Below, piece by piece: positions 3,850-46,184 of a stretch of 64,000 nucleotides of DNA (position 1 is its first letter; the number at the start of each line of letters is the position of its first letter). Source of the DNA: an uncultured Bacteroidales bacterium. Lineage in GTDB: Bacteria > Bacteroidota > Bacteroidia > Bacteroidales > VadinHA17. The translations under genes and the position numbers were made by a program. The stretch spans positions 160,358 through 224,357 of the forward strand of contig CAVTPT010000002.1 in the NCBI GenBank assembly GCA_963736675.1, in the 5' to 3' direction. Below the pieces are notes generated by a model. The model saw nothing but the letters and a program-made list of their open reading frames with translations. It ran no database searches and had not been told where the DNA came from.

Positions 3850-4652
3850 TTATGGAAAATGTATTTGAAAAGATCCCCATGGAAGGGGTAAAGAATATTA
3901 TTGTTGTTGCATCAGGCAAAGGCGGAGTCGGGAAATCGACAGTTGCGGCTAACCTGGCAATAGCAATGGCACGAAACGGCTATCGCACCGCACTCGTAGA
4001 TGCTGATATCTTTGGTCCTTCAATACCTAAGATGTTCGGTATTGAAGATGCCCGACCCGATGTCTCAGCTATCGGCGATAAAGAGATGATATTTCCGATC
4101 ATAAAATACGGGGTAAAAATAATCTCTATTGGATTCTTCATCGACCAGAGCCAGAGTCTTATATGGCGGGGTCCTATGGCAGCTAAAGCCCTGACCCAGC
4201 TTTTTGAGAACACTCAGTGGGGCGATATAGATTATATGATAATCGATTTCCCTCCCGGAACAAGCGATATCCAGCTCACTTCTGTCCAGAAACTGAATAT
4301 CACCGGAGCTATCATTGTGACCACTCCCCAGGAGATTGCAATCAATGATGCACGAAAAGCAGCATCCATGTTCATGAATCCTGACCTGAAAGTCCCTATT
4401 TTAGGAATAATTGAGAATATGTCGTGGTTCACTCCCGATAATCATCCCGACGAGGCTTACTATGTTTTCGGTAAGGGAGGCGGACTCAAACTGGCAAAAG
4501 AATTTGATACAAAGCTCCTTGGCCAGATCCCCCTCGTGCTTGAAGTCGGAGAGGCTGCTGAACATGGACTCAGTATTTTCAGCCAGAAAAATAAACTTGT
4601 GGTAACTGCCTTTGAAAAAATTTCAGAACAAATTATTTCAAAACAGGAATAA
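3846..4652 (+). CDS. Mrp/NBP35 (ApbC-type) iron-sulfur cluster carrier ATPase
   Basis: VASGKGGVGKST Walker A, DxPPGT motif (IIDFPPGTSD) and ENMS motif (GIIENMSWF). 4-nt overlap with the upstream gene. Confidence 0.85.
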   Translation: MIMENVFEKIPMEGVKNIIVVASGKGGVGKSTVAANLAIAMARNGYRTALVDADIFGPSIPKMFGIEDARPDVSAIGDKEMIFPIIKYGVKIISIGFFIDQSQSLIWRGPMAAKALTQLFENTQWGDIDYMIIDFPPGTSDIQLTSVQKLNITGAIIVTTPQEIAINDARKAASMFMNPDLKVPILGIIENMSWFTPDNHPDEAYYVFGKGGGLKLAKEFDTKLLGQIPLVLEVGEAAEHGLSIFSQKNKLVVTAFEKISEQIISKQE

Positions 4653-5138: not shown

Positions 5139-6971
5139 ATGATTAAACATTTTACCTTACTTGCCTGCTTAGCCACCCTGACCATAAATGGAATTTCTCA
5201 GGAAGATATCAGGAGCATTTTACAGGATACCGTTAATCTCGATGAAGTTGTAGTAACAGGAACCACAGTAAGAGTGAACAGGAGTAATATACCTATGGCA
5301 GTCACGGTGGTTAACACAAGACAGATAAATGAGAGTATTGAAACTGCTTTGCTTCCGGTACTGAACGGAAGGGTACCCGGATTATTTGTGACAGAGCGAG
5401 GGATTATGGGTTTCGGCGTTTCGGCAGGTGCCGCGGGCCAGATTTCGATAAGGGGCATAGGTGGCAGCCCTACAACGGGCGTTCTGATGCTGATCGATGG
5501 GCATCCTCAGTTCATGGGCATATTCGGGCATCCTCTGCCCGATTCTTATGTAGCGTCCGATGTGGAAAAAGTAGAAGTCATCCGTGGTCCGGCATCAATC
5601 CTTTACGGATCGAATGCGATGGGGGGAGTTATTAATATTATCACCAAAAAGCAGAAAGAGGAGGGTTTACATGGGAACACTCATATTTTGTATGGTTCGT
5701 ATAACACACAGAAATACATGGCATCGGCAGGATATAAGAAGAATAACTTCAGCGCATTTGCTTCGGTCAATCATGATCAGACAGACGGACATCGGAGTAA
5801 TTCCGATTTTAAAATAACAAACGGTTATGTCAAGATTGGATATGCGATAAGCAATAATCTGGATGTCAGCGCCGATTTCAGCCTTGCACATTTCAATGCA
5901 CAGGATCCGGGACCCGATACAGTCAATGCCAATCCCGGATACAATCTGGATGTTACGAGAGGATACTGGTCGCTTACTATGAATAATAATTACGCAAAAT
6001 ATTCAGGAACCGTAAAACTTTTCTACAATTTCGGCGAGCACAAAATATCTGACGGATTTCATTCAAATGATAATAATTATGGTGTAAATATTTTTGAAAC
6101 TGTCCGTCTTTTCAAAGGAAATACAGTGACCCTCGGCGCCGATTATCTTTTATACGGGGGGAAAGCTGACAATGAGCTCTACGGAACATTTATTACCGAT
6201 ACATCAATCTATGATGCAGGAGTATACGGATTTATGCAACAGACTCTTTTTAAAAAGCTGACACTAAATGCCGGTCTCCGCATGCAAAATCATCAGACTT
6301 ATGGAACAGAATGGATACCTGCCGGTGGATTTGCCTGGAAAATAGCCGGGAACACTACCTGGAAAACATCTGTTGCCAAAGGATTCCGTTCACCTACAAT
6401 AAGGGAACTCTTTATCTGGAACCACAACGTAAATCTTAAACCTGAAAGGATTCTAAACTACGAAACAGGAATAATGCAATCGTTTGTGCAGAATAAAATC
6501 AGACTTGAACTGACCGGGTTCATCGTTTCCGGAGAAGATATGATAATTACTGTTCCGATGCAGGGACTGCAGAATGCCGGTGAGATCCATAATAAAGGGA
6601 TAGAATTCTCGGCCAATACAAATGTTACGGAAAACCTTTCATTTAACCTTACTTATTCATATACTCATATGAAAAACACGGTTTATGCCACACCAAGGCA
6701 TAATATCTTTGCAAGCTGCGATTACACCTGGAAAAAGCTTCAGACCATGATAAGCATCCAGCATATTGATCGTCTCGATACTGATCCCCTGGCAGGTAAT
6801 GAAAAATTTGAAACATATACACTGCTAAACTCAAAAATATCGTACAAACTTATGAAATGGGGCGAGTTGTTTATCAGTGCTGAGAACATCCTGAACCAGC
6901 AATACGAAAATAACGTCTATTACCCGATGCCCGGGATCACCCTGTTTGGCGGAATAAAAATGAGATTCTGA
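5139..6971 (+). CDS. TonB-dependent outer-membrane receptor (small, 610 aa; candidate metal/Ni-Co transporter)
   Basis: Signal peptide, plug motifs (VVVTGT..., IEVIRGPASILYGSNAMGGVINIITK) and a terminal aromatic (MRF). Lies directly downstream of nikR. Confidence 0.85.
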   Translation: MIKHFTLLACLATLTINGISQEDIRSILQDTVNLDEVVVTGTTVRVNRSNIPMAVTVVNTRQINESIETALLPVLNGRVPGLFVTERGIMGFGVSAGAAGQISIRGIGGSPTTGVLMLIDGHPQFMGIFGHPLPDSYVASDVEKVEVIRGPASILYGSNAMGGVINIITKKQKEEGLHGNTHILYGSYNTQKYMASAGYKKNNFSAFASVNHDQTDGHRSNSDFKITNGYVKIGYAISNNLDVSADFSLAHFNAQDPGPDTVNANPGYNLDVTRGYWSLTMNNNYAKYSGTVKLFYNFGEHKISDGFHSNDNNYGVNIFETVRLFKGNTVTLGADYLLYGGKADNELYGTFITDTSIYDAGVYGFMQQTLFKKLTLNAGLRMQNHQTYGTEWIPAGGFAWKIAGNTTWKTSVAKGFRSPTIRELFIWNHNVNLKPERILNYETGIMQSFVQNKIRLELTGFIVSGEDMIITVPMQGLQNAGEIHNKGIEFSANTNVTENLSFNLTYSYTHMKNTVYATPRHNIFASCDYTWKKLQTMISIQHIDRLDTDPLAGNEKFETYTLLNSKISYKLMKWGELFISAENILNQQYENNVYYPMPGITLFGGIKMRF

Positions 6972-7018: not shown

Positions 7019-8386
7019 ATGAAGAAATATTCAACACTGCTGTTCTTATCACTCCTGTCATATAATATCCTGGCAAGTCCTATGCACTTTAAGCTGAAGC
7101 ATTCTGTAATAATCGATACGGATGCTGATGACAGCGATCTCAGGAGTATCAGCCTGCTCTTACACCTTTCGCAGATAAATATTAAAGCCATCGTGATATC
7201 AGGTAACATCCCCGGCCAGTCCGGGAGACTCGAAAGAATAAGAGAACTGCTGCGTAAAACAGGTGCAGATACCATTCCGGTAAGCCTGATAGCGGATAAT
7301 TCCATCGAAAAACATAATAGTAAAGGCAAAAAACAAAATAATTTATCAGAGAGCGTTAAAATGAGCATTGATATTCTCAGGACGGATAATGACACAGTTA
7401 TTTTTGTCTGCCTTGGCTCACTCACTAATTTGGCTCAGCTGTTTCAGCACGATCTCTCACTGGCCGGTAAGATTGAAGAAATAATATGGTATAATAATTC
7501 AGTCATCCCTCCTGTTGCCGACAACTTCACCGACTATGGTGAAGAAGCGGATTTCGTATTAAGATCCGGAGTAGCAATTGATATAATCTCAAACCTTGAT
7601 TATATTAATGCCGGATTCCCGGGGATAAAATATTCACCCGCTTCTTTCGAAGATAATAGCTTTGAAAGATCTTTTGGTCTTACTGAAGAGCTTGTAGCAA
7701 TAGCACTGGCAAATCATGAGCTTTTTGAGATGAGACCTCTTTCAACCGGATCGCCTGTCCGCTATAATGTAAAATACAACACGAGGGCTGTAAATGAAGT
7801 AATCTCCGATATAGTAAAAGGTAACTACAAGCCAGGTCATTTTGTTGCCTTTAACGGGTTTCCGCTTAATCCGGAGATCTACACATATGATGTCAGGCTT
7901 ATTATGGATGAAGCCATGGCAAAACATGGAGTTGAAGAGTGGAAAGCATGTGTTATGACGGATGAATTTCATGGACACCTTGGGGTATACTCCATTATCG
8001 GGGCAAAAATGGGGATACTGGCGAGAGAGTACTTCGGAGTCTCAACCGATCTTCTGAAGATAGGATCCTATGCAGGCTCCATAACACCATTCAGTTGCAT
8101 GAACGATGGCCTACAGGTAAGTACAGGGGCAACCCTCGGACAGGGAACGATCCATCTCATAGATGATCCTGTTACAAAGCCTCATGCCATTTTCACTTAT
8201 AATGGCAAATCCATACTTATTAAGCTGAAGTCCGGATACCAGGAAAAACTTAAAGAGTTAATAAAAGAGGGTGCAGCGAATTTCGGTCTGGAGGATGAAG
8301 ATTACTGGTTCATGGTCCGCCAGAGTGCAATAAGATTCTGGCTTGAGTGGGACCGCAATGAAATTTTTGAGATATCAACAATCTGA
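7019..8386 (+). CDS. secreted fusion protein: inosine-uridine nucleoside-hydrolase-like N-domain + FmdE-like C-domain
   Basis: Signal peptide. IIDTDADDSD resembles the IUNH DTDxxxDD motif. The C-terminus (FHGHLGVYSIIGAKMG ... SCMNDGLQVSTGATLGQG) resembles FmdE family motifs. Confidence 0.55.
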   Translation: MKKYSTLLFLSLLSYNILASPMHFKLKHSVIIDTDADDSDLRSISLLLHLSQINIKAIVISGNIPGQSGRLERIRELLRKTGADTIPVSLIADNSIEKHNSKGKKQNNLSESVKMSIDILRTDNDTVIFVCLGSLTNLAQLFQHDLSLAGKIEEIIWYNNSVIPPVADNFTDYGEEADFVLRSGVAIDIISNLDYINAGFPGIKYSPASFEDNSFERSFGLTEELVAIALANHELFEMRPLSTGSPVRYNVKYNTRAVNEVISDIVKGNYKPGHFVAFNGFPLNPEIYTYDVRLIMDEAMAKHGVEEWKACVMTDEFHGHLGVYSIIGAKMGILAREYFGVSTDLLKIGSYAGSITPFSCMNDGLQVSTGATLGQGTIHLIDDPVTKPHAIFTYNGKSILIKLKSGYQEKLKELIKEGAANFGLEDEDYWFMVRQSAIRFWLEWDRNEIFEISTI

Positions 8387-9349: not shown

Positions 9350-9758
9350 ATTGCTTATAATCACGCTAATTATCACAGTGTGGTTCGACTCTTTTCCGGG
9401 GTTACCACGCGCAATGGAAAATGAGTTAGTTAACATCAATAAATTAAGAGAATTAGTGAAATGTGACTTTAGTAAGTTTCTGGAAGTATAGGTTAGATGT
9501 TCTTAATTTATCTTATTTTTCTTTACTTTCTTTTGCTTCTCCAAAAGAAAGTAACAAAGTAAAGGAGCCCGGAAAAACCAACCCCACCCTTTTTTACGCC
9601 CGCTACACGTGGCTTCCCGCTACAAAAAAGGGTGTGGTTCGCACCTTTTCCGGTTTTACCCCCCGCATTACAAAATGATTTAGTTTACATCAACAAATGT
9701 GGTATCTATGAAATTCTTAAAGCCCTGGATATCTAACTTTTGTCTTTTGTCTTTCTTC

Positions 9759-9848
9759 GCCTCACCCCTTCCCGCGTTCGCGGGATTGAGTCGCTTCGCT
9801 CCTCAACACGCCTCAAGCCTCACGCCTTTTTCAGCCTCACGGCTTCTT
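9759..9848. repeat. REP-like element copy (core CCTTCCCGCGTTCGCGGGATTGAGTCGCTTCGCTCCTCAAC + CCTCACGCC-rich tail)
   Basis: Shares its core and tail with the copies at 11434, 11827, 13592 and 46050-46171 (the last in reverse orientation). Abuts the stop of the 9848-11149 gene. Confidence 0.7.
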
Positions 9849-11149
9849 CATTTAAATGTCACAAACATCAATACAGTATTATCAAAGTCATTTAGTTTAT
9901 CAGCCAGTTCTTCCAATTGTTTCTTTTTTTCAGGGAATTTTGGAGTATTGTTCTTAAAATCATCACTTGCAACATGTGCCTTAAGTTCATTTGCCGGCAC
10001 CCACATAACCATTGTTGAATCGTTGACCATTTTATCTGGCCTGAACCTTGGCCCGGCATCAATATCATTATAAAGACCGGTTGTAAACATAAAATTATCT
10101 GTGCTGGTTGGTTTACTGAATACAAAATCACCGGTTTTTTTATTATACACACCCAATACATTTGTTGTACTATACCAGATTTTATATCCTCCGGGCAGAG
10201 GGGCAAATGGCGTAAGCCTTTTTGCGGGAAAACGACTCCCAAAAGAACAATCAACAAAAAGATAATCATCAGTTTGATTAACTGCTTTAACAAAAAAATA
10301 ATCCATCCGGTAATTTTCCATTTTTTTTGACCTTTCAGAATCAGGCAATTTAAATTTACCAAGATTCAGGACATACTTTGGAATTAATTCATACTTATGA
10401 TTTAAAATGAATAAAGTGTCATTAAAGATTTCTTTGAAATAAAACTCGTTATTATATGTGTGAAAACACGCATCAAAAGTTGTAACCTTTACACTTCCGG
10501 TATTTGTAACGAATTTAATATAATTTACATATTTATGTTTTATTTCGCCCGATCGATTAATAATAAGGGCATTGTAATCGACTTGCCCATTAGCATTCGG
10601 AACATACCCTAAAAACAATGAATCATCCACAAGAAAAACCTGATCCATATAATATTGATTATCAACATTAAAAAACCCATTGTTTTTATCTATAAATGTT
10701 CCATCAATAGAATACTCATAAAGATCACCAAGCTGTTTTAAAAAGATTTTTCTATCTTTTGTTATCCCAATAATATAAGCTAATTGATACTCACCAGGAC
10801 CTCTGCCAATACTGCCTATATTTCTTATATATTTTCCGGAAGTATCATATAAAGTCAATATCAGATTTCCATGAATAAGCATATAATTGTCTAAAAAATC
10901 AGCATTATAAATAAATGTAAAAGGCTCACTGCCTTCAGATTGTAACGGCACATAATGTATATTATCTGTAAACTGACTTAAATTAACCACCTCCATTTTA
11001 TCTGCATTTGCTTCAAGATCAATGGAAATAATCTGGTTTCCAGTTTTTATCCCGTTTTTACAACCCAACGTTAAAAGCAAAATAATAAAACTAATATTTA
11101 ATATCCTCATATTAAGTGTGTTAGCTATATTAAAATAATAATTTGGCAT
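9848..11149 (-). CDS. 6-bladed beta-propeller lipoprotein (DUF5128/BF3164-like), paralog 1
   Basis: The lipobox LLLTLGCKN follows the internal Met, so the likely start is 11110. Length, composition and C-terminal motif (...DNTVLMFVTFK) parallel the paralog at 11914-13218. Confidence 0.65.
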   Translation of the reverse strand: MPNYYFNIANTLNMRILNISFIILLLTLGCKNGIKTGNQIISIDLEANADKMEVVNLSQFTDNIHYVPLQSEGSEPFTFIYNADFLDNYMLIHGNLILTLYDTSGKYIRNIGSIGRGPGEYQLAYIIGITKDRKIFLKQLGDLYEYSIDGTFIDKNNGFFNVDNQYYMDQVFLVDDSLFLGYVPNANGQVDYNALIINRSGEIKHKYVNYIKFVTNTGSVKVTTFDACFHTYNNEFYFKEIFNDTLFILNHKYELIPKYVLNLGKFKLPDSERSKKMENYRMDYFFVKAVNQTDDYLFVDCSFGSRFPAKRLTPFAPLPGGYKIWYSTTNVLGVYNKKTGDFVFSKPTSTDNFMFTTGLYNDIDAGPRFRPDKMVNDSTMVMWVPANELKAHVASDDFKNNTPKFPEKKKQLEELADKLNDFDNTVLMFVTFK

Positions 11150-11433
11150 AATAAGCAGAACTTAAATAAGATCGGTCACCCTTATTGATTTATCTTTCGC
11201 ATGTTACTGATTAGTCTCTCTTTTGCCGCAGTAGCAGAAAACGATTAGAAATAAGATCAATATTCCTGTTCTCATTATTAGAAGATTGATTTTTACTCAA
11301 TAACTCGCAGAACTGATCCGTAATTTACGAAGCTTTTTAATAATACGCTTAGGTATTTAGTTGTTTTATTAATTTCTCATGATAAATTATCCGGACATTC
11401 AGGTCCTGGTCTATGAGTTTCTTTACCCTCATA

Positions 11434-11474
11434 CCTTCCCGCATTCGCGGGATTGAGTCACTTCGTTCCTCAAC
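11434..11474. repeat. REP-like element core copy
   Basis: ccttcccgcattcgcgggattgagtcacttcgttcctcaac; hairpin cccgc-attc-gcggg. Confidence 0.7.
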
Positions 11475-11519
11475 TGCCAACTGCTAACTAAATGTACCCT
11501 CATGCCTCACGCCTCCTTT

Positions 11520-11735
11520 CCAAGGTTCCAAGGTTCCGGGGTTCCAATGTTCCAAGGTTCCAAGGTTCCAGGGTTTCAAGGTTCCAGGGTTCCAAGGTTC
11601 CAGGGTTCCAGGGTTCCAAGGTTCCAGGGTTCCAAGGTTCCAGGGTTCCAGGGTTCCAAGGTTCCAGGGTTCCAAGGTTCCAGGGTTCCAGGGTTCCAAG
11701 GTTCCAGGGTTCCAAGGTTCCAGGGTTCCAAGGTT
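11520..11735. repeat. tandem 8-bp repeat array (CCARGGTT) x27, with a 40-bp higher-order pattern
   Basis: Direct reading gives 27 contiguous 8-mers. The A/G position follows a repeating g-a-g-g-a pattern. The ORFs translated from it (GTLEPWN..., FQGSKVP...) are artefacts. Confidence 0.95.
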
Positions 11736-11751
11736 ATTCATATACAAGTAG

Positions 11752-11785
11752 TTCTTCAACTCTGGAACTCTGGAACTCTGGAACT
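11752..11785. repeat. inverted partner array (CTGGAACT) x3 of the 8-bp repeat, after the 16-nt spacer attcatatacaagtag
   Basis: The reverse complement AGTTCCAG matches the GGTTCCAG register of the left array at 7 of 8 positions. The same architecture occurs at 13405-13550. Confidence 0.85.
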
Positions 11786-11810
11786 TTACTGTCAACTACC
11801 AACTATATGT

Positions 11811-11909
11811 ACACTCACTCCTCACGCCTTCCCGAGTTCTCGGGATTAAGTCGCTTCACTCCTCAACACGCCTCATGCCTCACGCCTTTTTCAGCCTCAC
11901 TCCTTCTTG
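11811..11909. repeat. REP-like element copy (CCTTCCCGAGTTCTCGGGATTAAGTCGCTTCACTCCTCAAC + tail)
   Basis: Near-identical to the 13581-13680 copy. Its hairpin is cccga-gttc-tcggg. Abuts the stop of the 11914-13218 gene. Confidence 0.75.
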
Positions 11910-11913
11910 AAAG

Positions 11914-13218
11914 TTATTCTTTGGGGGTTACCATTACGAGAACCGGATTATCAGTCTCTTTAAGGGACCCGGCAAGTTTTTTGAGCTCGTCTTTCTTTTT
12001 TGGATCCTTCACCCTGGCTTTCTTAAAATCTTCGCTGGAAACATATTTTTTTAGTGTGTTAACATCACTAAATGAAAAGAATTTGCCATCACTACAATAT
12101 AAATTCCAAAAATCTATTCTCATACTGAAATCAGGGCCACCACTCAAATCATCTTTTAGTATATTCTTTGGTATTTTAACAGGAATACCGGCTATAGTCT
12201 CAGAGATCATTTCAACATCCAGTTTATATTTCCTATTTGTCCTTTTGTCGAAGAACATGTTTTTTATTGGAATACTACTATTTCGTGTTTTTTTTGTACC
12301 ATATGAATAGAAAACATACCGTGTTGTCTCAAATATGTCAACAATAAAGCTTGTATGATCGTATGGTATATCCGGGTTGCCTCTCATTTCGGGTGTGAAT
12401 AGAGTCCCATGTGTATTAAAAATCATTCGTGGTTTAAAAAAATTGTCTTTTGTCCCGACACAGAAAACAGTATCACTGAATTTTTCCATAAAGCAAACCA
12501 TATTACTAACGGAATAAACAAGCATATCATTTAATGCCTGGGAATTTCTTCCGCTAACCTTCTTGTACTTATAACAATTTGGTTTAAAATGAATTGTATC
12601 ACCTACGACATTTATCAATAAACTTAAAGTCGGCTCGGTCCCTCTCCATGGTGGTATTGCTAAAAATGCATTGTCTGTGGCAGGAACCATACTTACTCTC
12701 CATGGAGCTGGGTCTTTTAATGCTATTGATCTCTGGAAAGTAAACCCCGTATCAGAAATCTCATATACCAATAATTTGCGATTTAAGCTTGAAAGGATTG
12801 TCAGAATTTTATTATCAGAACTGACAGCAAAATCAGTAATGAACGAGTATTCTTCCGGACCTCTTCCTCTATTCTGAAGCTTAAATAGAAATTTGCCATC
12901 AATATCGAAGCACATTATCACACTCCCAAGCCCCCCACTGGTTTCAATATAAAATCTTTTACCTATGCTAATAAATTTCTGTATATTACTGCCTATCAAT
13001 GCGTTCTGCGATGTCTGTAATGGTATATACTCAACATTTGTAGCAATCTCAGATAAATTTTTAATTATGGTCTCCGTTTCTGAAAGTAGGTCGATTCCAA
13101 GAACCTGATCGATATTAGTTTGTTCATTAGTATTTGTCCTTCCACAGGAGCAAAGGAAGATTAGAAGAATGGGTAATATTGTTATTTTCATGATTACAAA
13201 ATTGATCTTCAACATCAT
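11914..13218 (-). CDS. 6-bladed beta-propeller lipoprotein (DUF5128/BF3164-like), paralog 2
   Basis: Lipobox LIFLCSCGR; the likely start is the internal MKITIL near 13191. Colinear similarity to paralog 1 (e.g. GRGPEEY vs GRGPGEY; the C-terminal ...DNPVLVMVTPKE). Confidence 0.65.
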   Translation of the reverse strand: MMLKINFVIMKITILPILLIFLCSCGRTNTNEQTNIDQVLGIDLLSETETIIKNLSEIATNVEYIPLQTSQNALIGSNIQKFISIGKRFYIETSGGLGSVIMCFDIDGKFLFKLQNRGRGPEEYSFITDFAVSSDNKILTILSSLNRKLLVYEISDTGFTFQRSIALKDPAPWRVSMVPATDNAFLAIPPWRGTEPTLSLLINVVGDTIHFKPNCYKYKKVSGRNSQALNDMLVYSVSNMVCFMEKFSDTVFCVGTKDNFFKPRMIFNTHGTLFTPEMRGNPDIPYDHTSFIVDIFETTRYVFYSYGTKKTRNSSIPIKNMFFDKRTNRKYKLDVEMISETIAGIPVKIPKNILKDDLSGGPDFSMRIDFWNLYCSDGKFFSFSDVNTLKKYVSSEDFKKARVKDPKKKDELKKLAGSLKETDNPVLVMVTPKE

Positions 13219-13404
13219 TTCGCAGAAATGATCTGTAATTTACGAAGTTTTTTAATAATATGCTTAATTATTTAGTTGTTTCTATTACCAAAAGCAGTAC
13301 CTCATTTTACCTTTCGCAGAATTGAGTCACTTCGTAGCTAAAACTACCTACTTTCCAACTGCCTCCTGCCTACTATATGTACCCTCACTCCTAACGCCTC
13401 CTTT

Positions 13405-13550
13405 TAAAGGTTCCAAGGTTCCAAGGTTCCAGGGTTCCAAGGTTATTCATATACAAGTAGGTTTTCAACTTTGGAACTCTGAAACTCTGGAACTCTGGAA
13501 CTCTGAAACTCTGGAACTCTGGAACTCTGGAACCCTGGAACTCTGGAACT
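13405..13550. repeat. second copy of the inverted 8-bp repeat structure: (CCARGGTT) x5, 16-nt spacer, (CTGRAACT) x10
   Basis: The spacer attcatatacaagtag (13445-13460) is identical to 11736-11751. Arm copy numbers differ from locus 1 (27 and 3 there, 5 and 10 here). Confidence 0.9.
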
Positions 13551-13591
13551 TTACTGCCAACTACCAACTATATGTACACTCACTCCTCACG

Positions 13592-13700
13592 CCTTCCCGA
13601 GTTCTCGGGATTAAGTCGCTTCGCTCCTCAACACGCCTCATGCCTCACGCCTTTTTCAGCCTCACGCCTTCTTCCGCCGAAGCTTCGGCGAAGGTGGGAT
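13592..13700. repeat. REP-like element copy followed by a 14-bp perfect palindrome GCCGAAGCTTCGGC
   Basis: Core ccttcccgagttctcgggattaagtcgcttcgctcctcaac, then the CCTCACGCC tail, then an extended hairpin around gccgaagcttcggc. Confidence 0.75.
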
Positions 13701-13769
13701 GCCTTTTATTACTTTTTAAAAAAAGTTTTGATTTCTGGGAATTATTTCGTAATTTTATTTTTTATTAAA

Positions 13770-14158
13770 TGAGAATCATTATTACTTAATAATGATTATT
13801 ACCTGATTTTGATTCTCAGATAATAATAGTTCTTAAATAATAACGATTATCAAACAGTAATGATCCCTGGCAGGGACCTATTATCAAATAGTAATGATTC
13901 TCAAATAACAATAGTTCTTATATAGTAAGATTTATCAAACAGTAAAGATCCCTGGAAAGGACCGATTATCAAATAGTAATGATTCTCAAATAACAATAGT
14001 TCTTATATAGTAAGATTTATCAGACAGAAATGACCACAGGGAGGGACCGATTATCAAATAGTAATGATTCTCAGATAACAATAGTTCTTATATAGTAATA
14101 TTTATCAGATAGTAACGATTATCAAATAACAACAATTCCTAAATAGTAATGATTATTA
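13770..14158. promoter_or_regulatory. array of Fur-family 7-1-7-type boxes upstream of the Fur/PerR-family gene
   Basis: TGAGAATCATTATTA at 13770-13784. TAGTAATGATTCTCA at 13889-13903, 13974-13988 and 14059-14073, and TAGTAATGATTATTA at 14144-14158 (reverse complements TGAGAATCATTACTA and TAATAATCATTACTA). Each matches TGATAATnATTATCA with 2-4 mismatches. At least 11 ATTATCA[AG]A / ATTTATCA[AG]A motifs occur through 14280. Confidence 0.55.
13796..14135. repeat. 85-bp tandem repeat, about 4 copies (AT-rich, each copy with a GC-containing mini-palindrome tccctg-g-caggga or a degenerate form)
   Basis: The anchor ttatcaaatagtaatgattctca recurs at 13881, 13966 and 14051, an exact 85-bp period. 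The flanking copies are diverged. Confidence 0.85.
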
Positions 14159-14308
14159 AATAATAACTATTCTTAAATAATAACGATTATCAAATAGTAA
14201 CTATTTACCCTTAATTTCAATTAGCTAACATTAACAATTATCAAACATTACCGATTTTCAAACAAATTCCATTATCAAATATTTTCCCTACCCCGACAAC
14301 AAGTACCC

Positions 14309-14737
14309 ATGGCAAACAAAACAGTGATCCGGATCCTGACAGAAAATAAACTCAAAGTAACTCCCCAGAGAGCGGCTATCCTCGAAGTATTACTCAGCCT
14401 GAAAAACCACCCCACAGCAGAAGATATTATTAACTACCTGCGAATTAGTTACCCCGCTATATCCCTAGCTACCGTCTACAAAAGCCTCGACCTGTTCGTC
14501 TCAAAAAGAATTATTGAAAAAATAAATACCTCCGGCGATATCATGAGATACGATACCTTCAAGGATCCACACCACCATCTTTATTGCTCCGACTCCGACC
14601 AGATAAGCGATTTCTACGATGAGAAAATCAATGAGATCCTAGAAAACCATTTCAGTAAAAACCCAATACCCGGTTTCAACATTGAAGATATTAAACTTCA
14701 GATCATCGGCAGATTTAAGGATAAACAAACCAAATAA
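14309..14737 (+). CDS. Fur family transcriptional regulator (PerR-like by context)
   Basis: LKVTPQRAAILEVL winged-helix start and HHHLYC metal-site motif. Followed by ferritin-like and peroxiredoxin genes. Confidence 0.85.
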   Translation: MANKTVIRILTENKLKVTPQRAAILEVLLSLKNHPTAEDIINYLRISYPAISLATVYKSLDLFVSKRIIEKINTSGDIMRYDTFKDPHHHLYCSDSDQISDFYDEKINEILENHFSKNPIPGFNIEDIKLQIIGRFKDKQTK

Positions 14738-22583: not shown

Positions 22584-22728
22584 GATAAATCATTTTTTAA
22601 TTATTACATCTTTAAGCTCAGAATCACTATTATATTAAGCATGTTTTTCCACATATACCTTTTCGTATTCGCGCAATTAAGTACCTTCGTTCACGCCTCA
22701 CGCCTCACGCCTCTATCTTAGTCAATGC

Positions 22729-23625
22729 CTAAATAACGTTGACCTTTTTAATACTTATTTTATCTCTTTTATAATGATGATGATTTACTGTTGATAACAG
22801 GAGATAACTTGAAGAGTTATCCTTGTTATCAATAGTATCTTTAAATGCTTTTGGCGTTAATTTCCCCAACGCTTTGTGTGGTTTTTCATTATTGTACATG
22901 TGTACTGCTTTGTTTAACAGCTTCCTGAGCGTTTTCATGTTTGTCGGGCCATATGGATAAAGATAGTTGTTTTTGATTATCCCGTTTAGCCTCTCAGCAT
23001 GTGAGTTCTCGTACACCTTTTCCTCTGTCATAGAGTTAATCATTTTAAGGCTCTTTGTGAGTGCTTTAAATTCATTGCAATAATACTGACCGCCACCATC
23101 AGAATGTATTATAGATCCTTTTAAATTCACCGTGCCACGCAGTGCAATCAACATTCTCAGGGCAGGTAACGTTGTAGTCTCAGTTCGCAGATTATCACTG
23201 GCAGACCAACCGACTATCTCGCGATTATAAAGATCCATTATAAAAGTCAAATAATATACATCTGAGCCTATATCGAAGTAGGTAATGTCACTCACAAAAA
23301 CCTGGTTCACACGTGTAACCCTGATATCCTTTATCATGTTTGGAAAACGAGTCACTCCAAGGCTGTTGGTTGTAACCCTGTAGTTCTTTAATCTCTTGAT
23401 CCTGTAACCATAGTCCATGCAAAAACGTTCGAACTGATCTCTGCCCATGCAATGTGGCTTAAGCTTAAGATAGATGTCTCTGGCTGACATACGTGGATGA
23501 TCTCTACGTATCTCATTTATCAAAGGTATCAACTGCTCAAGCTCTTCGTACTTGTATTTCCTTCGTTTAAGCATTTGATGGAAAGACTGCTTGCTTATAT
23601 TCAAAACATTAAAAAGATCGTTCAT
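22729..23625 (-). CDS. IS3 transposase OrfB (DDE / rve integrase core)
   Basis: SDITYF ... HSDGGGQY ... NSHAERLNG pattern (DDE triad context). The frame is continuous with the -1 frame of orfA after the A-run. Confidence 0.85.
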   Translation of the reverse strand: MNDLFNVLNISKQSFHQMLKRRKYKYEELEQLIPLINEIRRDHPRMSARDIYLKLKPHCMGRDQFERFCMDYGYRIKRLKNYRVTTNSLGVTRFPNMIKDIRVTRVNQVFVSDITYFDIGSDVYYLTFIMDLYNREIVGWSASDNLRTETTTLPALRMLIALRGTVNLKGSIIHSDGGGQYYCNEFKALTKSLKMINSMTEEKVYENSHAERLNGIIKNNYLYPYGPTNMKTLRKLLNKAVHMYNNEKPHKALGKLTPKAFKDTIDNKDNSSSYLLLSTVNHHHYKRDKISIKKVNVI

Positions 23626-44442: not shown

Positions 44443-45372
44443 ATGACAGAACCAGAAGGGGAAAAATGGATTTTCATTGTCAATCCGACAGCAGGCAACG
44501 GTTTTGCAGGAGAACTTGTTCCTGAAATCACCGCAATGATAAAAAAACACAATGTGAACGGAGAAATAGTACTCACTGAAAGGCCCGGCCACGCAACTGA
44601 ACTTGCAGAACGCTATTTAAACCAGCGATACAGCCATATCATCGGAGTGGGTGGTGACGGTACATTCAATGAGGTAGCCAGACGCCTCATAAACAGGACG
44701 GATGTTGTTACCGGTATAATCCCTGCAGGCACAGGGAACGATTTTATACAGATACTGGGATTTCCCGGCCGTTTCGGGGAAAGGGAGTGGGATATCTTTT
44801 TTTCCGGGAATATTATACCCATGGATGCAGGTACGGTCAACGGGATGATCTTTACCAACGGCATGGGCCTCGGTTTCGATGCAGAAGTCGCGGCACAGAA
44901 TTATATAGAACCGGGGAAGGTAAAGAAAGGCGGAAAACATAAATACATATGGCATATAGTCAGGACACTCCTTTTTTTCAGTGAGAAGAATATGACTGTA
45001 AAAAGTGATCATAACATCTCCGAAACCGAATGCTTCATCAATACAGTATCAATAGGAAGAAGATTTGCGGGAGGTTTCTTTCTGACTCCTGAAGCAATTG
45101 CCAATGACGGTCTTCTCGACATTTGCATGATTAAAAAGCTGAATCTTCTGCAGAGATTCCGGTTACTTCTTAAAGTTCCTGAAGGTAAACATATTACAAA
45201 CAACAAGGTCAATTATTATCACTCAACAGGACTTGAGATTGAGTTTACCGAAAAGGTACCCTTCCATGTCGATGGAGAACTGTTCTTTGCAAAAAGCTTT
45301 GATATCGGAATAATGCCCGGAGCCCTGAATATTATCTATAACCCCGATGGAAACCATTTCTTCAGAAAGTAA
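44443..45372 (+). CDS. diacylglycerol kinase-family lipid kinase (YegS-like)
   Basis: GGDGTFNEV motif and DAGK catalytic-domain layout. Confidence 0.8.
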   Translation: MTEPEGEKWIFIVNPTAGNGFAGELVPEITAMIKKHNVNGEIVLTERPGHATELAERYLNQRYSHIIGVGGDGTFNEVARRLINRTDVVTGIIPAGTGNDFIQILGFPGRFGEREWDIFFSGNIIPMDAGTVNGMIFTNGMGLGFDAEVAAQNYIEPGKVKKGGKHKYIWHIVRTLLFFSEKNMTVKSDHNISETECFINTVSIGRRFAGGFFLTPEAIANDGLLDICMIKKLNLLQRFRLLLKVPEGKHITNNKVNYYHSTGLEIEFTEKVPFHVDGELFFAKSFDIGIMPGALNIIYNPDGNHFFRK

Positions 45373-46027
45373 GAAATCATATATTGCCTTTTTTGACCTC
45401 GACAGGACGCTTATTGCTGCCAACAGCGGCAGAGCACTTGTTAACCTGGCACGTAAAAAAGGTATGATGCCGTGCACGGGTCTCATCAGGGCAATTTATC
45501 TTTCGCTCCTGTATAAGCTTGACTTAAAAGACACTGTAAAAATCCTTGGCGATATGGCAGCCTGGGTTAAAGGTCTGCCTGAAAAATCTATAATTGACCT
45601 CTCCTGCGAAGTTTCCGCTTCAGTCCTTATACCATCAATCTACAGGGAAGCATTGGCAGAGATAAATAATCACAGAGGCGAGAATGCAGCCCTGGTAATG
45701 CTCTCCTCAGCGATCCGGCCGGTTTGCAGGGAGGTTGCCGGATACCTTTATATGGACGATGTCCTCTGTTCCGACCTTGAAGTGAATGATGGATATTGCA
45801 CCGGTGGAATAGCAGGTAATTTCTGCTTCGGGGAAGAAAAAGCAATCAGACTTATAAAATATTGTGAATCAAACAACATCTCCCCTGATAAAACATGGTA
45901 TTACGGAGACTCAATATCTGATCTTCCCGCATTAAGCATAGCAGGATTCCCGGTGTGTGTGAATCCTGATAAAAAACTCCTGAAAATTGCCAGGGCAAAA
46001 GGCTGGAGGATTTTCAGGTGGGAATAG
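45347..46027 (+). CDS. HAD-IB family hydrolase
   Basis: FFDLDRTLI motif I and GDSISD motif IV. Overlaps the upstream gene by 26 nt. Confidence 0.75.
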   Translation: METISSESKKSYIAFFDLDRTLIAANSGRALVNLARKKGMMPCTGLIRAIYLSLLYKLDLKDTVKILGDMAAWVKGLPEKSIIDLSCEVSASVLIPSIYREALAEINNHRGENAALVMLSSAIRPVCREVAGYLYMDDVLCSDLEVNDGYCTGGIAGNFCFGEEKAIRLIKYCESNNISPDKTWYYGDSISDLPALSIAGFPVCVNPDKKLLKIARAKGWRIFRWE

Positions 46028-46049
46028 ATGGGGAGCACTTGAGTTTGAG

Positions 46050-46184
46050 GTAGAGCTTGAGATAGAAAGTGTTGAGGAACGAAGTGACGAAATCCCGCGA
46101 ATGCGGGAAGGTAGAGCTTGAGATAGAAAGTGTTGAGGAACGAAGTGACGAAATCCCGCGAATGCGGGAAGGTTAAGGTTGAGA
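46050..46184. repeat. 61-bp tandem repeat x2 (+ partial third), each unit containing a reverse-oriented REP-like core
   Basis: gtagagcttgagatagaaagtgttgaggaacgaagtgacgaaatcccgcgaatgcgggaag occurs at 46050-46110 and again, identical, at 46111-46171. Confidence 0.9.

Follow-up and report, generated by a model that had tools for sequence, protein, structure and literature searches.

Inverted octamer arrays beside two Bacteroidales lipoprotein genes as members of a class of intergenic repeat hairpins

Results

The paired octamer arrays upstream of two neighboring lipoprotein genes in an uncultured Bacteroidales bacterium belong to a class of intergenic repeat hairpins that is widespread and poorly understood. 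We favor, at a probability of roughly 0.55, reading them as slippage-prone simple-sequence hairpins within a REP-like 3′-flank mosaic, with a role no more specific than that of a generic barrier or a terminator-like element. Within the window (the whole 64,000-nt stretch of DNA analyzed), each lipoprotein gene lies downstream of one copy, A or B, of a 450–600-bp mosaic combining REP-like hairpin modules with an inverted pair of RGTTCCAR octamer arrays. The features are, with strand where assigned:

9757–9850, minus: REP-like core and GGCGTGAGG-rich tail, abutting or overlapping the gene 1 TGA stop; no arrays attached
9848–11110, minus: gene 1, DUF5128 six-bladed beta-propeller lipoprotein, likely 420 aa; longest ORF to 11149
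11207–11275, minus: gX relic, 23-codon lipoprotein signal peptide ORF, MRTGILILFLIVFCYCGKRETNQ*
11305–11366, minus: 62-nt block, copy A; 90% identical to copy B
11427–11474, minus: REP-like core, copy A left; intact hairpin TCCCGCATTCGCGGGA
11475–11517: flank X-left, copy A; 84% identity with copy B, and in direct repeat with flank X-right
11518–11735: array A-left, (GGTTCCAR) x27; left end degenerate, right part a homogeneous 40-nt higher-order repeat
11736–11757: loop/spacer, copy A, containing the 16-nt core ATTCATATACAAGTAG; 90% identical to copy B
11758–11785: array A-right, (AACTCTGG) x3.5, the GGAAC-type arm
11786–11908, minus: flank X-right, REP-like core and tail, copy A; 120/123 identical to copy B
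11914–13191, minus: gene 2, DUF5128 lipoprotein, likely 425 aa; longest ORF to 13218
13220–13281, minus: 62-nt block, copy B; the gene 2 ATG follows 29 nt downstream
13296–13343, minus: degenerate REP-like core, copy B left; 60% match, hairpin lost
13407–13444: array B-left, (GGTTCCAR) x4.8
13445–13466: loop/spacer, copy B; 16-nt core identical to copy A
13467–13550: array B-right, (AACTCTGR) x10.5
13551–13673, minus: flank X-right, REP-like core and tail, copy B; located between divergent genes rather than after a stop codon

The paralogous ORFs of 433 and 434 aa described in an earlier sequence-only reading are present at 9848–11149 (gene 1) and 11914–13218 (gene 2), and both match Pfam DUF5128 (6-bladed beta-propeller; E = 4.9e-14 and 1.6e-24, respectively), with 25% protein identity between them. 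They are indeed neighbors, but both had to be reassigned to the minus strand, which puts copy A on the 3′ side of gene 2 and, at the same time, on the 5′ side of gene 1. The true starts are likely the ATG codons at 11110 and 13191, each of which opens a lipoprotein signal peptide (MRILNISFIILLLTLGC in gene 1, MKITILPILLIFLCSC in gene 2). The short ORF behind copy A is a remnant of the signal peptide of a third paralog, gX: it is 65% identical in nucleotides to the 5′ end of gene 2 and starts 30 nt downstream of copy A of the 62-nt block. In the collection searched, this organism's proteins had no relatives at 90% identity or above, and no second strain is present in the databases.

Tandem Repeats Finder (TRF) confirmed the inverted array pairs, with 27 and 3.5 units in copy A and 4.8 and 10.5 in copy B, arranged around the identical 16-nt core, which occurs exactly twice in the window (at 11736 and 13445). 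The pattern GGTTCCARGGTTCCAR has 36 matches in the window against 0.12 expected, all confined to the four arrays. Since the copies are otherwise 90–98% identical, the proposal that the arrays expanded and contracted independently stands. In array A-left the best fit is a recent higher-order period of 40 nt, or 5 units (94% matches); this repeat and the degenerate, older units at one end of the array point to slippage as the probable cause of the length changes.

Folding placed array–array stems on both strands; the arms can thus pair, in line with the earlier suggestion of hairpins. Arm imbalance is unusually large in the window's two pairs (8-fold and 2.2-fold; elsewhere, 5 of 52 pairs differ by at least 2-fold), and therefore only 3–5 units are able to pair. 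The window contains no T-run 3′ of the hairpins, and Rfam returned only sub-threshold matches, all to generic long-hairpin miRNA precursor models. The lopsided arms and the lack of a T-run count against our preferred reading.

The REP-like core TCCCGCGTTCGCGGGATTGAGTC occurs six times in the window against 0 expected. The module at 9757–9850, the third to combine REP and tail, is 89–91% identical to the other two, and five of seven REP modules sit directly behind a stop codon in sense orientation; copy A begins 5 nt past the gene 2 TAA stop. REP-like elements had been placed on both sides of each array pair, which fits copy A; in copy B the left core is degenerate. Identity between the mosaic copies, far above that of the genes, rises from the genic side (5′ coding sequence 65%, 5′ UTR 73%, 62-nt block 90%) through the spacer (90%) to the flank, REP and tail (98%), and homology stops abruptly at 13673. 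Copy B lies in a region of divergent promoters, where no gene ends upstream of it, so a 3′-end role cannot apply there.

The block shared upstream of both genes is real, although it spans 62 nt rather than about 70 bp, and it is close to the start codon of gene 2 only: copy A lies 195 nt from the gene 1 ATG. Copy A could have served the lost gX as promoter or leader, or it could be a long leader of gene 1; no copy of the block was found in any related locus. Its 90% conservation between diverged paralogs is a further counterpoint to our reading, as it suggests a real regulatory region beside the arrays.

The main rival explanation, which we regard as unlikely, is a contingency switch like that of hmw1A, in which the arrays would be transcribed within an extended 5′ UTR of gene 2 (and, in the past, of gX, now of gene 1) and fold into a long RNA hairpin, with changes in unit number by slippage setting the expression of each putatively surface-exposed lipoprotein independently. 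In Haemophilus influenzae hmw1/hmw2, the 5′ UTR contains both a heptamer array and the arm with which it pairs; repeat numbers range from 11 to 63 and are uncorrelated between paralogs (PMC12721329). Unit numbers here likewise differ between otherwise near-identical upstream regions, the array–array stems and the retained 62-nt block would suit such a device, and conserved regions of ~400 bp also precede the DUF5128 paralogs of a related organism. However, ~215–360 nt, including the conserved block, separate the arrays from the gene 2 ATG; promoter motifs in the window are at background level, leaving no identifiable promoter upstream of the arrays; the tail-REP part also occurs in the 3′ flank of both genes; and orthologs of gene 2 in relatives (60–73% identity) lack GTTCC arrays.

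The distribution of the class elsewhere bears on the same question. Our scan covered species-representative genomes, and the source contig was not among the loci listed. The 118 loci listed and the window hold 173 GTTCC-type arrays, and 34 of their pairs have the polarity (GTTCC-type)n-loop-(GGAAC-type)m against 1 with the opposite polarity. At least nine genomes, from the phyla Acidobacteriota and Bacteroidota, carry the octamer hairpin. By crude gene calls, 11 classifiable pairs among the loci listed lie between tandem genes, 6 between convergent and 2 between divergent genes, and pairs usually begin 0–10 nt past the upstream stop codon (median ~5 nt). Their neighbors are functionally mixed: some encode secreted proteins, others are housekeeping genes such as ftsY-like, MiaB-like, SpoU and DAG kinase genes. 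The order stop, REP-like hairpin, GGAAC arm, GTTCC arm and next ATG was seen twice in one Bacteroidales locus (L072). Since the class usually lies just after the stops of unrelated genes, and also between convergent genes and beside housekeeping genes, the dedicated on/off switch for surface lipoproteins that had been suggested is not supported.

Multiplication within genomes (a Saprospiraceae metagenome-assembled genome [MAG] has at least 17 loci, an Acidobacteriota MAG at least 12), the uniform polarity and the REP-like hairpins that accompany arrays in two Bacteroidales genomes and in locus L046 could alternatively reflect a non-autonomous mobile element. Such a MITE- or REPIN-like element would use the octamer arrays as terminal inverted repeats and a transposase or RAYT encoded elsewhere, which would explain spread within genomes and across phyla. 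We consider this improbable: loop sequences are not conserved across pairs in other genomes and internal sequences are unrelated between copies, target-site duplications are not visible, and no transposase is linked to the elements. Moreover, JGI metagenomes held no genuine copy of the window's spacer junction, and viral contigs carried single arrays only, never pairs.

The GTTCC/GGAAC core recurs at periods of 7, 8 and 9 nt, which would also be compatible with binding-site arrays for a nucleoid-associated, IHF/HU-like or other global regulator, or with an ECF-sigma −35-like GGAAC motif, the paired arrays organizing local DNA structure or regulating neighboring genes. Aklujkar et al. proposed the same for paired octamer and heptamer sites in Geobacter metallireducens (PMC2700814), and fixed polarity with balanced arms would suit a symmetric protein complex. 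This reading also has a low probability, as no candidate protein is known and copy numbers are highly variable. Furthermore, 26 inverted pairs in the loci listed are built from other 7–10-nt units, and such a variety of unrelated units with one architecture in the same genomes points to a structural or mutational origin rather than to one specific binder.

Discussion

Under the favored reading of slippage-prone hairpins, both structures are copies of a single two-layer intergenic mosaic. The first layer is the REP-like module, in which a tail rich in GGCGTGAGG is joined to a short hairpin core, and which in this genome trails stop codons in sense orientation; the second is a tandem-repeat hairpin of two inverted RGTTCCAR arrays around a ~31-nt loop. 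Long simple-sequence arrays may lengthen or shorten through replication slippage or unequal exchange, and arm lengths would therefore differ. Duplication of units comprising a gene and its upstream region would have built the cluster and so account for the mosaic in front of each paralog; the third-paralog relic remains from that history, and the REP and array part would later have been homogenized or re-copied. The most likely role is generic: either a long stem-loop barrier between neighboring genes, which could be terminator-, insulator- or 3′-end-stabilizer-like as for REP/BIME elements, or neutral or selfish DNA. We infer the barrier function solely from the position of the class in other genomes.

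One of the closest known systems, hmw1A/hmw2A, also has a repeat array (of 7-nt units) upstream of paralogous, there surface-protein, genes, with the array as one arm of a long hairpin and repeat numbers uncorrelated between paralogs (PMC12721329, PMC8262952). It demonstrates that a 5′-UTR hairpin repeat array can be a true phase-variation device (PMC12721329), a point against our generic interpretation. However, location of the array in the 5′ UTR has been demonstrated for hmw, and its pairing partner is a G-rich arm without repeats that RNase III cuts, whereas here arrays form both arms, 5′-UTR placement is putative and the class as a whole shows no tie to surface genes. The hmw paralogs also resemble each other, unlike the window's two genes.

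Intrinsic (Rho-independent) terminators, often bidirectional, similarly place a stem-loop a few nucleotides past stops and between convergent genes, and T-runs follow some Saprospiraceae copies. In contrast, the window hairpins have no such run, copy B is not behind a gene, and the stems are very long, repeat-built and only 50% G+C.

To our knowledge, REP/BIME mosaics are normally without long octamer arrays. The modules otherwise resemble REP/REPIN sequences in being short imperfect intergenic palindromes, mostly 3′ of genes (Bertels and Rainey 2011, PMC3116915), and REP/BIME elements in combining with other short motifs into mosaics and in occurring as near-identical copies in one genome. 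Unlike REP/BIME/REPIN, the cores flanking each array pair are direct rather than inverted, and no RAYT was identified.

Cyanobacterial STRR heptamers are comparable to these arrays. So are long simple sequence repeats with 5–11-nt units, as PMC4679880 presents them from Mrazek et al. 2007, and the intergenic TAACTGA heptamers of Beggiatoaceae, Cyanobacteria and Bacteroidetes (MacGregor 2015, PMC4679880), which share tandem 7–8-nt units, a sporadic phylogeny with the same unit in distant phyla, and variable copy number. No mechanism is known for transfer of such repeats across phyla (PMC4679880). TAACTGA arrays are mostly forward direct repeats just upstream of start codons (PMC4679880), whereas here inverted pairs form hairpins and the class abuts stop codons.

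A further close match is in G. metallireducens, where paired inverted tandem octamers had already been described (PMC2700814), so the architecture, which the sequence-only reading did not recognize, is not unique. Those sites share tandem 7–9-nt units (3–5 copies there), opposite-strand pairing at variable distance, and an intergenic, multi-copy distribution with several unit classes per genome (PMC2700814). Their units (GTTGCTYN, TCTCCGTS[Y] and MTYCTGA) are unrelated to RGTTCCAR, and their copy numbers are fixed and low, against lopsided arrays of up to 27 units here; they were interpreted as putative sites for IHF/HU-type regulators (Aklujkar et al. 2009, PMC2700814).

Paired octamer arrays in the window

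Two minus-strand lipoprotein paralogs, genes 1 and 2, are accompanied by two mosaics of REP-like cores and inverted octamer arrays: copy A, between gene 2 and gene 1, and copy B, upstream of gene 2. Each copy carries a GTTCC-type arm of RGTTCCAR octamers (unit also written GGTTCCAA) and a GGAAC-type arm, its reverse complement, on either side of a spacer that forms the loop.

Features of the window around the mosaic copies and the REP-like cores (array units from TRF)
9757-9850, third tail-plus-REP module, without arrays, overlapping the gene 1 stop codon
9848..11149, minus strand, gene 1, Pfam DUF5128, 6-bladed beta-propeller, E 4.9e-14
11518-11735, array A-left, 27 units
11758-11785, array A-right, 3.5 units
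11914..13218, minus strand, gene 2, Pfam DUF5128, 6-bladed beta-propeller, E 1.6e-24
13407-13444, array B-left, 4.8 units
13467-13550, array B-right, 10.5 units
22650-22715, degenerate REP-like core with (TCACGCC)x3.3, directly 3' of gene 22729..23625(-), in sense orientation
46048-46169, tandem REP-like pair, two perfect 61-nt copies, directly past the stop codon of gene 45347..46027(+)

TRF recovered the four arrays described in the sequence-only reading, and the 16-nt spacer core that it had called identical is the same in copies A and B and occurs nowhere else in the window. Octamer pattern matches number 36 against 0.12 expected, and with 8-nt units, 3.5 to 27 copies and exclusively intergenic positions the arrays are long simple sequence repeats. 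Paired arrays are separated by ~31 nt, and unit number differs between the paralogous copies. Array A combines degenerate units at its outer end with a perfect 5-unit (40-nt) higher-order repeat, a pattern that points to recent expansion through slippage or unequal exchange.

Measured from the gene 2 ATG, the arrays are ~215-360 nt upstream, further out than a conserved 62-nt block. The main rival to the reading that we prefer below is a contingency switch like that of hmw1/hmw2 in Haemophilus influenzae, which requires a promoter upstream of the arrays. Upstream of both genes, the search for the Bacteroidetes promoter motif gave one-mismatch boxes only, at background frequency, and a sigma-70 scan around the genes was uninformative. 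We consider the switch unlikely; if it were real, Bacteroidota, a phylum in which the phase variation known so far is mainly invertase-based, would have its first contingency locus of the repeat-hairpin kind.

Scanning 9500-14400 for terminators returned none at the arrays or REP cores and no T-run after the hairpins, and fold z-scores for copy B were only about -2 on either strand. Across the whole window, the only gathering-score match in Rfam 15 was one tRNA; the arrays gave just sub-threshold matches to miRNA-precursor hairpin models, and a known RNA family was rejected. Coding repeats were likewise rejected, the 8-nt unit being out of frame and the ORFs 11492..12310+ and 11484..11795- artefacts. 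A G.U wobble asymmetry between the arms, taken as RNA-level selection, was withdrawn, as it is imposed by the R positions of the search pattern.

The REP-like layer of the mosaics

Read in gene direction from 5 nt past the gene 2 stop codon, copy A consists of a tail, REP core, flank, GGAAC arm, loop, GTTCC arm, flank, REP core and the 62-nt block. A REP-like element on both sides of the arrays, as the sequence-only reading had it, is thus present in copy A; in copy B the gene-proximal core has decayed. The core, TCCCGCGTTCGCGGGATTGAGTC, has six copies in the window (<= 3 mismatches; 0 expected) and one degenerate copy, and five of these seven lie directly behind a stop codon in sense orientation. 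Those at 9770, 11437, 11830 and 13595 are on one strand, and the tandem pair at 46086/46147, composed of GTTGAGGAACGAAGTGACGAAATCCCGCGAATGCGGGA with a GGTAGAGCTTGAGATAGAAAGT lead, is also direct.

Identity between copies A and B climbs with distance from the coding sequence.

Identity between copies A and B, by segment
5' coding sequence, 65%
5' UTR, 73%
62-nt block, 90%
decayed REP zone and left flank, 78-84%
spacer, 90%
right flank, REP and tail, 98% (120/123), homology stopping abruptly past the tail

Since the mosaics are this similar while the gene 1 and gene 2 proteins share only 25% identity, the repeat part must be much younger than the gene duplication or have been homogenised. A recent tandem duplication of gene plus spacer was rejected on the same contrast (proteins 25%, mosaics 90-98%).

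The 16-nt spacer was absent from all 126 fetched loci, and the REP core was found in one of them (L046, a Syntrophaceae MAG contig). At L046 5300-5610, the hairpin TCCCGCATTCGCGGGA equals the 16-nt hairpin at window 11437-11452 and lies ~50-150 nt from GGAACTTT arrays, beside (CAGTGCCT)x4, in a MAG of another phylum; we estimate ~0.007 chance matches in the fetched loci. Either the mosaic is shared or the contig was mis-binned.

History of the DUF5128 locus

Internal ATGs at 11110 and 13191 open typical lipoprotein signal peptides as read from the sequence (MRILNISFIILLLTLGC and MKITILPILLIFLCSC, respectively). The 62-nt block ends 29 nt before the ATG of gene 2 and 195 nt before that of gene 1. 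In copy A, a 23-codon ORF, MRTGILILFLIVFCYCGKRETNQ* (11207-11275, minus strand), starts 30 nt past the block; it is a lipoprotein signal peptide whose DNA is 65% identical to the start of gene 2, so copy A once preceded a third paralog, since deleted. The relic is evidence of a DUF5128 gene lost from the stretch that separates genes 2 and 1. Gene 2 is bracketed by direct repeats, namely the arrays and the 123-nt modules (98% identical), through which further paralogs could be lost or gained.

In related organisms the same region holds OsmC, (cupin), a fur-family gene, catalase and ferritin and is free of DUF5128 genes; the DUF5128 pair is therefore a lineage-specific insertion. The nearest gene 2 orthologue in the protein collection is 73% identical, and GTTCC arrays were absent from the orthologue loci (L001-L008, L127-L130). 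No second strain was found for array comparison: the 90%-identity clusters of gene 2, the PerR-like protein and an FmdE-fusion protein have one member each. The exact gene 2 protein is recorded from the source sample only, and its sole other assembly is a 1566-bp short-read (Logan) contig, one end of which falls, by coordinate arithmetic, within array B-left and the other within the REP tail. The short-read run ERR12035931 breaks off within the arrays. P0122, a cluster mate of gene 1, proved to be an unrelated 43-aa protein, and L011 and L014, suggested by spacing, are not orthologous loci.

DUF5128 genes are themselves clustered in relatives (L127/L128 1732-5310; L130 1-10347), with up to nine tandem paralogs adjoining a C39-peptidase ABC exporter and membrane-fusion protein, which suggests a link to a secreted-peptide system. 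The organism with the 73% orthologue (L001) has tandem DUF5128 genes, one apparently a pseudogene, and a ~400-bp intergenic element upstream of each (4100-4580, 5851-6365 and 7059-7476). The three copies of this element show ~75% column identity and contain many TTGTACCnnGACA-like sub-repeats; in sequence the element does not resemble the mosaic of the window.

Two neighbouring features of the window were also recorded. At 13774-14290, the sequence ahead of a PerR-like fur-family gene (14309-14737) is taken up by ~30 tandem 17-bp Fur/PerR-box-like units with an 85-bp higher-order period (x4.6); a ferritin-like gene follows. Relatives with fur-catalase-ferritin synteny have only ~2.5 copies of a 17-bp box, and the units resemble an operator that has been amplified, which may serve as a repressor sponge or in strong autoregulation. 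At 7019-8386 (plus strand), a 455-aa protein joins an inosine-uridine nucleoside hydrolase-like N-terminal part to a C-terminal FmdE domain and has no relatives at >= 90% identity in the protein collection.

The same architecture in other genomes

Scanning one genome per species for RGTTCCARRGTTCCARRGTTCC yielded at least 118 loci, those among the matches listed belonging to Acidobacteriota (including Vicinamibacterales), Saprospiraceae, Bacteroidales and scattered other phyla. These loci and the window hold at least 173 GTTCC-type arrays.

Arrangement of arrays among the matches listed and the window
GTTCC-array then GGAAC-array, within 150 nt, 34
GGAAC-array then GTTCC-array, within 150 nt, 1
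direct pairs, within 150 nt, 8
single arrays, 89

At least nine genomes among the matches listed account for the 34 pairs, and because the search finds both orders equally, the polarity is real. One Saprospiraceae genome (C1_MAG_00026) has at least 17 loci with arrays. Gene calls in the fetched loci are crude, and approximate in high-G+C loci; by these calls, classifiable pairs lie between tandem genes in 11 cases, convergent genes in 6 and divergent genes in 2, typically beginning 0-10 nt past the upstream gene's stop codon and occupying the entire gap. In one Bacteroidales locus (L072) the layout of the window recurs twice, built with another REP-like hairpin, in the order stop codon, hairpin module, GGAAC arm, GTTCC arm (15-19 units) and next ATG, and some copies in other genomes have T-runs after the hairpin.

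Neighbouring genes in the Bacteroidota loci are functionally mixed: an SRP54/FtsY-type GTPase, MiaB-like and YgiQ-like radical-SAM enzymes, SpoU, DAG kinase, DegT, a LytTR response regulator, M28 and M48 peptidases, a serpin and four type IX secretion cargo (Por_Secre_tail) proteins. An association with surface or host-interaction genes was not found in these loci. The architecture that the sequence-only reading did not recognise, and likened to phase-variation switches for surface proteins, recurs in at least nine genomes beside such mixed genes.

Alternatively, the paired arrays may be a mobile element, and they could act as terminal inverted repeats. Against this, loops of the inverted pairs are unrelated from copy to copy, which also sets them apart from MITEs; no target-site duplications were visible at the array-pair copies; and the window's spacer junction, GGTTATTCATATACAAGTAG, had no genuine copy in JGI metagenomes, where two chance matches both lacked arrays. 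We regard a mobile origin as improbable. Phage origin was rejected: viral contigs carry 35 single arrays and 0 inverted pairs.

A wider class of tandem-repeat hairpins

The pairing of arrays extends beyond the octamer. TRF found 464 arrays with 6-11 nt units in the listed loci, which pair inverted 52 times and directly 6 times (e.g., inverted pairs at L012 1753-1852, L023 829-914, L067 4373-4545 and L118 5492-5596). Half of the inverted pairs (26/52) have unrelated units, such as GAGTTTAT/ACTCATAA, GATTGTTC/AACAATTG and TGGTCATC/ATGACCAG. These non-GTTCC pairs follow the same rule as the octamer hairpins, a 5' arm rich in G and a 3' arm rich in C, with G>C in the 5' arm and C>G in the 3' arm in 18 of 26 and the reverse in one. 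Terminator-like selection may lie behind this, or the pairs may originate by template switching. Where two tandem 7-10 nt arrays form an inverted pair, their copy numbers are usually similar; only 5/52 pairs elsewhere differ at least two-fold, and the window's ratios of 27/3.5 and 4.8/10.5 are outliers. Relatives of the source organism have other heptamer arrays between unrelated genes, such as (GGCTGAG)x10.7 between catalase and ferritin, and also REP-like cores adjoining heptamer arrays.

We favor, with a probability of roughly 0.55, a generic repeat hairpin that is prone to slippage and embedded in a REP-like 3'-flank mosaic; it would have come to lie upstream of both paralogs because the cluster was duplicated and its repeat part homogenised. 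Where the class lies in other genomes suggests a barrier role, as terminator, insulator or 3'-end stabiliser; in the window, the hairpins without a T-run and the location of copy B, which is not behind a gene, argue against it.

A broader joint reading, doubtful when taken as a whole, is that (RGTTCCAR)n-loop-(YTGGAACY)m hairpins are a discrete, undescribed intergenic family of fixed polarity and a length-tunable barrier. The family would be common to Acidobacteriota, Saprospiraceae and Bacteroidales, with normally balanced arms, and would itself belong to a more general class of tandem-repeat hairpins whose 5' arm is G-rich and whose 3' arm is C-rich. Some specific process would make and keep that class, with hairpin-templated slippage, template switching or a GGAAC-octamer-recognising protein as candidates. 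Its members would be bidirectional transcription barriers right after stop codons, and in the window one arm, through its run-away expansion, would modulate read-through to the lipoprotein paralog that follows.

For annotators, a seemingly unique promoter switch becomes one instance of a recurrent element class, and such structures should not be called phase-variation loci without read-level evidence. The regularities are now testable: one octamer in fixed-polarity hairpins, in two phyla, usually a few nucleotides past stop codons.

Comparison with known systems

Tandem 7-9 nt intergenic repeats (LSSR, STRR, TAACTGA, Geobacter paired sites) have been known for decades, and to our knowledge no function has been assigned to them. 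Invertible promoters of the Bacteroides fim type have inverted repeats flanking a promoter segment of roughly 150 bp or more and a recombinase close by; this model was rejected, with ~31 nt between the arrays and no recombinase gene adjacent. The window's REP cores share with REP/BIME elements a short imperfect palindrome, near-identical intergenic copies and a preference for positions 3' of genes; unlike BIMEs and REPINs, which alternate in inverted orientation, neighbouring cores here are all direct. Intrinsic terminators combine a G+C-rich stem-loop with a U-tract, whereas the window's hairpins are without a T-run.

In the searched literature, the octamer itself appears only in unrelated synthetic oligonucleotides. 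Long simple sequence repeats as defined by Mrazek are summarised in PMC4679880, and TAACTGA heptamer arrays are common to Beggiatoaceae, Cyanobacteria and Bacteroidetes, with no known transfer mechanism (MacGregor, PMC4679880). The best precedent for the phase-variation idea of the sequence-only reading is H. influenzae hmw1/hmw2, where one arm of a long hairpin is a 5'-UTR heptamer array of 11-63 copies, with no correlation in copy number between the paralogs. This hairpin is cut by RNase III, and both expression and repeat instability depend on it (PMC12721329).

The closest published architecture is that of the Geobacter paired sites. In G. metallireducens, GTTGCTYN octamers were annotated as 24 pairs of four tandem units on opposite strands, TCTCCGTS[Y]x3 as 21 pairs and MTYCTGA heptamers as 8 pairs of five units, for which binding of an IHF/HU-type global regulator was proposed (Aklujkar et al., PMC2700814). 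That the window's arrays likewise serve as protein-binding sites seems to us improbable. With the Geobacter sites they share same-unit tandem arrays on opposite strands, a variable distance apart, and the window holds two copies of this paired-array composite in its 64 kb.
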